Source: Octopus vulgaris
Lineage: Eukaryota
DNA length: 64,000 nucleotides
Reading direction: 5' to 3'
Assembly (NCBI GenBank): GCA_951406725.2
Contig: OX597816.1
Span: forward strand, 156,612,001-156,676,000
A program made the translations under genes and the position numbers. This document shows positions 38,470 to 54,912 of the stretch, piece after piece. The notes below the pieces were generated by a model. It saw only the letters and a list, made by a program, of their open reading frames with translations, had not been told where the DNA came from and did no database searches. Within the stretch, counting starts at the first letter, position 1; each line of letters begins with the position of its first letter.

Positions 38470-38642
38470 GGCAACATGTGGAACGAGGACGGCCAGATTG
38501 GAGGAGTATTAAGAAACTGCAGAACTTCACTGATGATAGAAACCTCTGAATGAACCGTCCTTGTTTTTTTTTCCTGTCCTTCTATGTATCGTTTTACTGT
38601 CCGGATGTTTTGTTGTCGCCCGTTACGTTCTTGTTCCTTTTT
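38470..38642 (+). mobile_element. PLE-like repeat family B, internally deleted copy
   Basis: GGCCAGATTGGAG...CTGATGATAGAAA...GAATGAACCGTCCTTG...TGTCCGGATGTTTTG matches the reverse complement of 38850-39030. Confidence 0.7.
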
Positions 38643-38844
38643 TATATATACATATAGCGGCGTACGTACACATTTAGTCTCCCGTATATCACTATATATA
38701 TATATATACAATATTTTATAATTATGAGTATAATTATAATTAGGGTTCATCAAAAATTTGCTTTACCAAATACTGAACTTTAGAAATAGCAGCCAAAGTA
38801 CCTTAGTTATTTCTTCTACTATAAGAAGAAACTCAAGAAGAAAA

Positions 38845-39300
38845 TACAAAATGGGACAAGAATGCAAAACATCCGGACAGCTAGGTGATAAAATAAGGGA
38901 CAACAAAACATCCAGATAGACGATACAAAAAACAATGATGGGTCATTCGAAGCTTTCTATCCTCAGTCAAGAACCGGATCATCCTCGCAATTTCGGCTGA
39001 TTAATCTTGAGATTGTTCCCATCTGGCCAGCGCCAAGGAAAAACTAAGCTAAGAGCATTAGATTCCTTGGAAGAAAGCAGCGAATGTATACAAAAAAAAG
39101 GACAGAAAAAGCAGACGATGTTACACAAATATAAATACAAATTACAATAAAAATTATAATGATAATAATAATAATAACAACAGGACATAACAACAGTTGT
39201 CTTTCGACTGGGGACGAACCGAATTCAGCTGGCGTGTGTGGATATGAATCCTTACGACAGAGATACAGAACTTTCGCAAGCACAGGGAAGAATATCTATG
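38845..39300 (-). mobile_element. PLE-like repeat family B with permuted hammerhead motif
   Basis: Homologous to 54570-54912 (AAGCTAAGAGCATTAGATT, AACAACAG.TGTCTTTCGACT); hammerhead core strands at 38960-39013. Confidence 0.7.
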
Positions 39301-39442
39301 TGGCAGTGACCACGGTCAGACGCAAAAAGAGGCCTAGCAGTCTGGTCTGTCGGTCACGCGAGAAGAGAGAGAGAGAGAGAGAGAGAGAGTTGTAGAAGCA
39401 GATGAATAGAAAAACTAATGAATGGCCATAAAAAATGACAGG

Positions 39443-39490
<48 letters not shown>

Positions 39491-39496
<6 letters not shown>

Positions 39497-39827
39497 CGAA
39501 ACACGCATGTAGTCGAGCCGGGGACAGCTGATGAAGGGGAACGTTCCGTGTGTTGTTTGTCCTGCGTTCTGTTTTTTCGTTGTCAAAAAAAGTCCGTTCC
39601 CTTGTTTTTATGTTTTCGTTTCTCGTTGAGTTCTACGTCTATTTGTGGTTTCCTGTACTCACATAAATATATTTATATATGCATGTATATATACATGTAG
39701 ATGTAGGTACGTACATATATGTATGTATGTATGCATATATTTTATTTATTACATTATTGTATGACTGAGCACCCTCGCGTCGTTTCGTTTCGCTTCTTTC
39801 CTTTCTCCCAGTATGCTTTTATATATA
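39491..39827 (+). repeat. Repeat family C, copy 1 (PLE pseudo-LTR-like)
   Basis: Near-identical direct repeat of 40661-41000. Confidence 0.9.
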
Positions 39828-40351: not shown

Positions 40352-41000
40352 ACTCCTCTTCATCTCCATCTCCCTCACGGCTGAGTCGACTTTACTTCCT
40401 TTTCACTCCAGCCTGCTTCAAGTCAAGACGACTTATTCCTGCGCTCTGAATTTTTTTTCCTCGTTTTGTCCTGTTTTTATTCTTTATGTGTACTGTATTT
40501 TTCATATTTGCATTTTTATTTTGTATTCGTATTTTTATTTGTATTGCTTTTACGTCGTGTTCTTGTCACATTTTTTCTTTCCTTGTTTTTAGCCCTCTGC
40601 AAGGGAATTTTATTTAATTCCCTTGCAGGAAGGACCGGTCCAACGAGCGTGTCCAGTCCTTACCTTCGAAACACGCATGGAGTTGAGCCGGGGACAGCTG
40701 ATGAAGGGGAATGTTTCGTGTGTTGTTTGTCCTGCGTTCTGTTTTTTCGTTGTCAAAAAAAGTCCGTTCCCTTGTTTTTATGTTTTCGTTTCTCGTTGAG
40801 TTCTACGTCTATTTGTGGTGTCCTGTACTCACATATATATATTTATATATGCATGTATATATACATGTAGATGTAGGTACTTACATATATGTATGTATGT
40901 ATGCATATATTTTATTTATTACATTATTGTATGAATAAGCGCCCTCGCGTCGTTTCGTTTCGTTTCGTTTCTTTCCTTTCTCCCAGTATGCTTTTATATA
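40225..41000 (+). repeat. Repeat family C, copy 2, including the upstream hairpin and complete permuted hammerhead motif
   Basis: Direct repeat with 39491-39827; 13-bp hairpin at 40597-40628. Confidence 0.75.
40635..40710 (+). ncRNA. Candidate hammerhead ribozyme with non-circularly permuted strand order (GUC -> GAAA -> CUGAUGA)
   Basis: Stem III GCGTGT/ACACGC (6 bp); GUC 40651-40653; stem I CAGTCCTT/GGGGACAG (1 mismatch, 2 G-U); GAAA 40668-40671; CTGATGA 40698-40704; weak stem II GGGG/CCTT. Confidence 0.55.
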
Positions 41001-41476
41001 TATATATACATATATATATAATCTGTACGACTCATTTACACTTTTACTCTTTCTTTTAGCTCCCTACACGCTTTCTTCTTTCTTTCCACTTTTCCCTCCT
41101 CTCGCTGCCCCTCTCCCACATATCTTGCCCTTTCTTTCATTCTCATCACTTTCCCTCTTTTATCACCCTTGTACCTTTCTTTACGTTCCTTTCCTTTCTT
41201 TTCCTCTCCTTCTCGTCCTTCACTAATTCTTCAATCCCTCTGTCCTCTACCTCTCTCCTCTCCTTCAACTTGCCTAGTGTTCCGCCAAGCCTGACCTTTC
41301 TTTCGTGGTTCGACTTCCTTCTGTGTAGCATCTCTTATATTCATTCTCATGCCTGCCATGCCTTTGTCCCTGCCGTAAGGCTTCACTCCACACAAGCGAG
41401 CATAATTTAATTCGCTTTTAGTCGAAAGTCACCTGTTGTTAATGTCTTGTTGTTTGTATTTGTAATATATATATAT

Positions 41477-54569: not shown

Positions 54570-54912
54570 AAAAATACAAGAACGCAATAGAGGAAAATAA
54601 CGCATTCCGACGGATAGACGATACAAAAGCGGACAGGAGAAACAGTAATTAGGAGGAAAGGAAAAAAGAAAGACGGGTCTTTCGTGGACTTCTTTCCTCA
54701 GTCAAGTTTAGCAGAAGTCCATACAGCTTCGAGCAGTTAGACTTGAGACAGTTCGATCTGGTTGCCCTCCAAAATGTTTAAGCTAAGAGCATTAGATTTT
54801 TTATGTAAGAAGGCTAGCGAATGTGCGCTGCAGCAAAGATAAAACTCGGAGAACATAGTGCACAATTACAAATACAATGAACAAGAAAATAACAACAGGT
54901 GTCTTTCGACTG
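54570..54912 (-). mobile_element. PLE-like repeat family B, diverged copy
   Basis: Homologous to 38845-39212; permuted hammerhead strands at 54695-54749. Confidence 0.7.

Follow-up and report, generated by a model that had tools for sequence, protein, structure and literature searches.

The question raised by this locus is whether a set of hammerhead motifs in an unusual order can form a ribozyme and, if so, where its stem II lies. The locus is on the minus strand of a 64,000-nucleotide stretch of the Octopus vulgaris genome, the whole of which is here called the window. The initial annotation read it as a non-circularly permuted hammerhead with the cleavage site, GAAA and CUGAGGA in that order, and saw no convincing stem II. 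In the sections of Eckert et al. 2023 (PMC10085705) considered here, a hammerhead consists of three blocks that are assumed to be uninterruptible: S holds the cleavage site, G the GAAA, and C the CUGANGA together with the strands on either side of it. The same sections describe types SGC and CSG validated from metatranscriptomes and metagenomes, and mention permuted types in the genomes of known organisms only as one GCS candidate.

The comparison of repeat families described below points to a predicted hammerhead similar to types SGC and CSG, in which a four-way junction separates A9 from G10.1. This split-core form is none of the six orders in Eckert 2023. We consider it quite probable that the window contains a mutated copy of such a predicted hammerhead near the 3' end of a non-coding, likely Naiad-type repeat, and that the RNA of the repeat would cut itself after AUC.

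The repeat copy and its helices

The permuted hammerhead of the 64-kb window is one copy of a dispersed repeat, family B, with 3156 first-look candidates in this microsatellite-rich animal genome of 2.8 Gb. The best 39 other copies are 91-95% identical to the window copy. The 3' end of the family is fixed, homology stopping at 38838-38844 in 26 of 29 other loci, while the 5' ends of these loci are variable and reach up to 39448. A (TA)n run (39446-39492) precedes the window copy, the 3' ends are nearly always next to (TA)n or another microsatellite, and some copies have a short tail of 30-40 bp beyond the (TA)n. A second core, tandem or inverted, is found in 20 of 102 loci and a single core in the other 82; tandem copies are spaced by about 710-830 bp. 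The described marks of Naiad Penelope-like elements include (TA)n targets, partial tandems, inverted 5'-truncated copies and a 30-40 bp tail (PMC8557442, in the portion consulted). Family B has the (TA)n targeting, the tail, and the tandem and inverted 5'-truncated copies, and is likely a non-autonomous Penelope-like element of the Naiad type. The window contains this copy and copies of two other families, C and D:

38841..39448, minus strand: family B repeat copy, non-coding, 5'-truncated, with a fixed 3' end (comparison of family B loci)
40597..40710, plus strand: family C copy sharing the six-helix layout, with stems of other sequence (alignment and family comparison)
39491..39827, plus strand: family C copy that breaks off a few bases 3' of the cut, where (TA)n adjoins it; 95% identical to 40661-41002
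54662..54824, minus strand: decayed family D copy with the same layout and compensatory changes in stems I, II and III (alignment)

Two other relics were observed. The region 38480-38710 (plus strand) is related to family B and decayed: CTGATGA and the 3' tail persist, no GAAA block is readable, and the region is arranged tail to tail with the family B copy. The region 41367-41468, oppositely oriented, has 75% identity to 39162-39263; it is a 5' fragment akin to family B or D and contains no ribozyme.

The strands of the family B copy, all on the minus strand and given in the order in which they are read, are as follows:

39072..39085, minus strand: 5' strand of the closing helix (IV), pairing with 38958-38945; present in the minimum free energy (MFE) and centroid folds
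39033..39070, minus strand: hairpin (V), CCAAGGAA/TTCCTTGG, flush with the stem II 5' strand (sequence and folds)
39028..39032, minus strand: stem II 5' strand (10.x), GGCTG in the family, with G10.1 changed to C here
39021..39027, minus strand: 5' strand of the stem I-II interaction helix, pairing with 38979-38973
39011..39016, minus strand: stem III 3' strand and the U16.1-C17 site (AUC); predicted cut 39011/39010
39005..39010, minus strand: stem I 5' strand (1.x), TCAAGA, pairing with TCTTGA at 38972-38967
38987..38999, minus strand: stem II 3' strand CAGCC, GAAA (G12-A15.1) and stem III 5' strand TTGC (sequence and pairing)
38973..38979, minus strand: 3' strand of the interaction helix, pairing with 39027-39021
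38960..38972, minus strand: stem I 3' strand and CUGAGGA (C3-A9) (core conservation among BLAST-collected copies)
38945..38958, minus strand: 3' strand of the closing helix, one base past A9, pairing with 39072-39085

All motifs named by the initial annotation were located on the minus strand where it had placed them, including the AUC triplet with the predicted cut between 39011 and 39010; GAAA is at 38994-38991 and CTGAGGA at 38966-38960. The elements of a hammerhead core (C3UGANGA9, G12AAA and U16.1-H17) are present. The stems cross, and an Rfam scan of the whole window returned no family above threshold; the fold is thus neither the nested three-way junction of types I, II and III nor a circular permutation of it.

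In the first half of the element, the 5' strand of the closing helix, the hairpin, the 5' strand of stem II, the interaction helix and the cleavage block follow one another; the second half consists of the GAAA block, the interaction helix, stem I with CUGANGA, and the 3' strand of the closing helix. By this order A9 and G10.1 are not joined. The bases past CUGAGGA pair with the far 5' flank, directly 5' of the hairpin, forming the closing helix. A9 and G10.1 would meet at a four-way junction, with possible stacking between the closing helix and the hairpin, and between stem II and the A9-G12 pair.

Two helices had been noticed before in another role. The distal pairing is real (39027-39021/38979-38973), and forms the stem I-II interaction helix; it does not extend stem III. 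The upstream hairpin is present at 39070-39033; it was incompletely described, and belongs to the four-way junction at A9/G10.1. The closing helix that joins the two flanks, like the link to Naiads, was absent from the earlier reading. Stem II was said to be unconvincing; its partner strand is 39032-39028, upstream of the cleavage site, and it was overlooked because it had been sought 3' of CUGANGA. It is also hidden in this copy by the change of G10.1 to C.

The window copy is the only one of 30 family B copies with C at position 10.1 (26 G, 3 A, 1 C), and it has a second substitution, G to A, at the outer stem III pair (39016). Contigs from four other runs that cover this stretch have the family letters at 10.1 and 39016. 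Upstream stem II is not formed in the MFE structure of the window copy, and the plus strand of this copy folds as well as the minus strand (z of -2.7 vs -2.5). A near-consensus copy folds unaided into the closing helix, the hairpin and upstream stem II (z of -3.5). The C10.1-C11.1 mismatch probably impairs the window copy as a predicted ribozyme.

Conservation of the fold within and between families

Covariation, for which the initial annotation had called, was assessed in a MAFFT alignment of 24 B-like copies picked for diversity. The six-helix structure is paired in 86.2% of cells, and 25 of 39 pairs are changed on both sides. None of 500 shuffles reached its score, a count that is not a probability because the copies are related; controls with slid strands were paired in 29-53% of cells. 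Pairing is strongest in stem III (97.5% of cells, two-sided change in 4 of 5 pairs), stem I (93.8%, 4 of 6) and stem II (91.7%, 4 of 5). Hairpin V is paired in about 85% of cells, with five pairs counted. The interaction helix is paired in 79% of cells, and in the family comparison has a mean energy of -8.0 kcal/mol with its own strands and -4.8 kcal/mol with swapped ones. The closing helix is also paired in 79% of cells, with two-sided change in 6 of 12 pairs and two columns paired in less than half of the copies; its swap control is weak (13 of 19 own pairs vs 121 of 342 cross pairs), since 35% of the cross pairs pass. The S-G-C order proposed initially is right, and stems I and III were correctly identified. 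The hairpin interior (39040-39062, minus strand) has five columns that are invariant in the 24 copies. This conservation exceeds the need of a plain stem and possibly reflects a protein-binding or tertiary motif.

The location of stem II was compared between families using alignments of 30 copies each of families B, C and D, together with 30 loci of a further family, N. In all four, the partner of the five bases preceding GAAA is not the sequence past CUGANGA; it is a strand on the upstream side of the cleavage site, beginning directly behind the hairpin. The pairing strands differ: GGCUG/CAGCC in B, GGGCA/UGCCC in D, GAAGG/CCUUC in C and GACAC/GUGUC in N. In a wider set, 168 hits less 19 truncated by microsatellites gave 149, which formed 40 clusters; 19 of the 40 have a cleavage block by a criterion blind to stem II, and the other 21 were dropped for want of one (truncated or decayed copies, or chance hits). 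An upstream stem II partner matching in at least 4.5 of 5 positions is found in 14 of these 19 families and in 23 of 322 between-family swaps, and a flush downstream partner of that quality in none of the 19. With the upstream strand, stem II starts with G10.1-C11.1 in 17 of 19 families and 21 of 24 aligned copies, a pair that the window copy has lost. In automatic folds, no nucleotide separates the hairpin from stem II in 9 of 19 families. The similarity of order to the locus at 40597-40710, pointed out in the initial annotation, is borne out: that locus belongs to another family, C, whose stems differ in sequence while the six-helix layout is shared.

The fixed core positions are kept in 26-30 of 30 copies in the three BLAST-collected families, and N7 varies. 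In family D, for example, N7 is G in 19 copies, A in 7, T in 3 and C in 1, and the neighbouring positions are kept in 28-30 of 30. Position 17 is C or U, and never G in 90 copies. Two family D loci (L072 and L086) show a compensatory change in stem III, ACAG/CTGT vs ACTG/CAGT. Two nearly identical family C copies (L032/L037, C1 about 76.309 Mb) are inverted and about 930 bp apart, an arrangement typical of Penelope-like insertions. Taken together, these comparisons indicate a real and covarying hammerhead fold of undescribed topology, present in the window in a decayed copy.

A strict descriptor of the fold gave no hits in 400 kb sampled irrespective of the motif (0.1 in shuffles), and misses all window copies because each carries a stem mismatch; a relaxed descriptor found one clear copy in a motif-blind genome sample. 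A GCS order, called by the strict descriptor in 17 family C hits, was taken as a low-complexity GU-rich alternative.

Junctions at the predicted cut and other readings of the fold

Self-cutting of the RNA would be expected to leave some cDNA copies that start at the cut. We considered 29 family B loci with (TA)n at most 30 bases before the core, 28 of which are readable. By hand count among the matches listed, 24 of the 28 junctions are at or 3' of the predicted cut, and four are 10-14 bases upstream of it; there are none in the nearest nine upstream bases. Genome-wide, (TA)3 is cleanly joined to the first base after the predicted cut in 106 copies (+1 and +2 being indistinguishable), while positions -1 to -8 total 45 loci by hand count, and the best single upstream position has 10 loci, helped by a two-base microhomology. 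Four of six family D junctions are at the predicted cut. The junctions 3' of the cut sit in AT-rich sequence, where microhomology helps. Cleavage cannot be complete, because many copies extend 5' past the cut site; it may be partial, or the templates may be tandem or re-ligated. We speculate that cleavage of read-through or tandem transcripts releases unit RNAs, that the 3' product is primed at (TA)n to give copies that start at the cut, and that longer copies and tandem ones stem from templates that are uncut or re-ligated.

The read-through copies would also suit a six-helix fold that is real, has lost or never had catalytic activity, and serves as a recognition or priming structure for a Penelope-like reverse transcriptase (RT), the step in the junctions reflecting RT stalling. 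The break inside a block that Eckert 2023, in the sections considered, assumed to be uninterruptible fits this explanation as well. We regard it as rather unlikely: the pattern of conservation is that of a catalytic RNA, with a free N7, no G at position 17 in 90 copies, a fixed core and covarying stems, and the junction step is at the scissile bond and not at the 3' edge of the fold.

It is quite improbable that the element is an ordinary type SGC, with stem II formed 3' of CUGANGA after an insertion of 1-5 nt and the upstream pairing representing an 'off' fold. GGCU located five bases past A9 pairs with AGCC in families B and D (72.9% of cells in the +5 register) with some covariation, its score being reached by 4-6 of 500 shuffles, and GGGG of family C can pair with CUUC. 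However, this register breaks the 10.1-11.1 pair in 12 of 24 copies, the flush register is paired in 7% of cells, and the best downstream partner is no better than swaps (3.45 vs 3.50). The downstream pairing signal arises because the same bases pair in the closing helix.

Slightly less probable still is an active form assembled in trans or between tandem units. Tandem copies about 710-830 bp apart do exist, and minimal Penelope-like hammerheads are thought to act as dimers (PMC4209133, in the part considered), but here a single unit accommodates all six helices in about 145 nt, and 82 of 102 loci have a single core. A chance resemblance in an AT-rich repeat, to which the scarcity of descriptor hits in the genome samples and an uneven density might point, has a negligible probability and is largely refuted by the 8-fold genome enrichment of CGAAA-N22-27-CTGANGA (35,480 hits vs 4,228 for the reversed pattern), the cross-family covariation, and the same fold, read by eye in published sequence excerpts, in other phyla.

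Relation to known hammerheads and to Naiad elements

Among the known systems close to the predicted split-core hammerhead is type SGC (HRIMA-1 and variants), as far as the latter is described in the parts of Eckert 2023 considered here. Both have the order of cleavage site, GAAA and CUGANGA, the same core, a short linker between stems I and II, and a helix joining the other ends of these stems. In type SGC the 5' strand of stem II follows CUGANGA, whereas in the split form it is at the 5' end and two helices lie between A9 and G10.1; an intact block C is found in 0 of 19 families, and the flush register that it requires is paired in 7% of cells. Type SGC comes from metatranscriptomes, while the split form is a high-copy animal genomic repeat. 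Type CSG, represented in the same source by two metagenomic sequences, has the cyclic strand order of the split form, but its block C is whole and the molecule opens after stem III, whereas the split form opens inside block C.

Mobile elements carry hammerheads too. The type I or minimal ones known from Penelope-like elements (Cervera and de la Pena 2014, PMC4209133) and those of non-LTR retrozymes (bioRxiv 10.64898/2026.07.22.740005) are, in the portions consulted, of the circular-permutation type I with a weak helix III. The split form, with multiple pseudoknots and a full helix III, escapes the type I descriptors of Penelope-like elements and retrozymes, the only ones used in the consulted portion of the retrozyme preprint. 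Family B is non-coding and sometimes tandem, as non-LTR retrozymes are, but its ribozyme is not of type I. The PK hammerhead (PMC11300833) has an added helix and a pseudoknot like the split form; its extra stem is on helix I, and no break at A9/G10.1 is described in the text considered. The parts of Perreault 2011 covered here contain no comparable form, nor do those of two papers cited for 'additional helices'. Within the open-access literature searched, no SGC, CSG or split-core hammerheads were found in Penelope-like elements. Excerpts of two reports indicate that CChMVd tolerates an extra A between A9 and G10.1 (PMC3705267) and that hammerheads of Penelope-like elements keep an extra base there (PMC4209133). 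The A9/G10.1 position could tolerate two helices as well.

The consulted part of Craig et al. 2021 (PMC8557442) reports no canonical hammerhead in Naiads, noting 'HHR_core' or 'HHR_half_core' strings. Family N matches by eye the 3' end of the published Naiad_Ovul consensus and of the preceding entry, within the displayed sequence. It is located within 1.5 kb downstream of the C-termini of Naiad RTs in 15 of 30 loci, and the RT remnants upstream of it match Naiad_Ovul by eye; Pfam recognised neither of two Naiad RT fragments. The motifs found on the sense strand behind 20 divergent Naiad RT loci are N-like; 30 GIY-YIG loci have no motif downstream on the sense strand. Family B differs from Naiads in having no open reading frame (ORF): one with an N-terminal GIY-YIG and a C-terminal RT was not found upstream of it, no RT or endonuclease remnants were found beside copies of families B, C and D, and Naiad RT peptides compared with the loci of these families matched only an unrelated short repeat among the matches listed. 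Since no ORF lies alongside, it is the fold and the insertion habits in common with Naiads that suggest a Naiad origin for families B, C and D.

An abundant young Penelope-like family (e.g. L137 and L142) has an intact ORF of 781 aa with a C-terminal GIY-YIG, and CUGANGA occurs downstream of the endonuclease on the sense strand in almost none of its loci. It is a possible mobiliser of the non-coding families.

Published Naiad tails of four phyla show the same fold by eye, in the displayed portions of the PMC8557442 supplement. The split layout can be read at the 3' ends of Naiad_Amil (coral) and Naiad_Plae (acanthocephalan), in Naiad_Bfor (ctenophore; short stem I) and in the entry before Naiad_Plae, which the order of the table assigns to a box jellyfish. 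Type CSG with block C whole is read by eye in Naiad_Smim (spider) and in three nematode-region entries, Naiad_Smim having an extra U between A9 and G10.1. A count by eye of 12 Naiad tails gave four split (one in part), one CSG, one unclear, and six without a hammerhead in the displayed part. The displayed tails of Naiad_CGi, Naiad-1_Skow and Naiad-2_Chem share a GC-rich motif, GGGTG...GCTYACTC...CACCTGA, and no hammerhead; this motif may be another ribozyme or structured RNA.

We lean towards the view that the split core is a seventh natural topology, ancestral to many animal Naiads (ctenophore, cnidarians, acanthocephalan and cephalopods) and to tens of thousands of non-autonomous copies in this genome. 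If so, non-circularly permuted ribozymes would be known not only from environmental RNA but also, in high copy number, from animal genomes, in a topology that the six-order scheme left out by assumption. This topology would be the reason why the Naiad clade was scored as hammerhead-free, a view that would be overturned, and the CSG Naiads of nematodes and spiders would mark an evolutionary route between permutations. The four-way entry at A9/G10.1 would offer RNA engineering a new place for the attachment of sensors. The role of the ribozyme in the transposition of Penelope-like elements would become approachable through genomic junctions.
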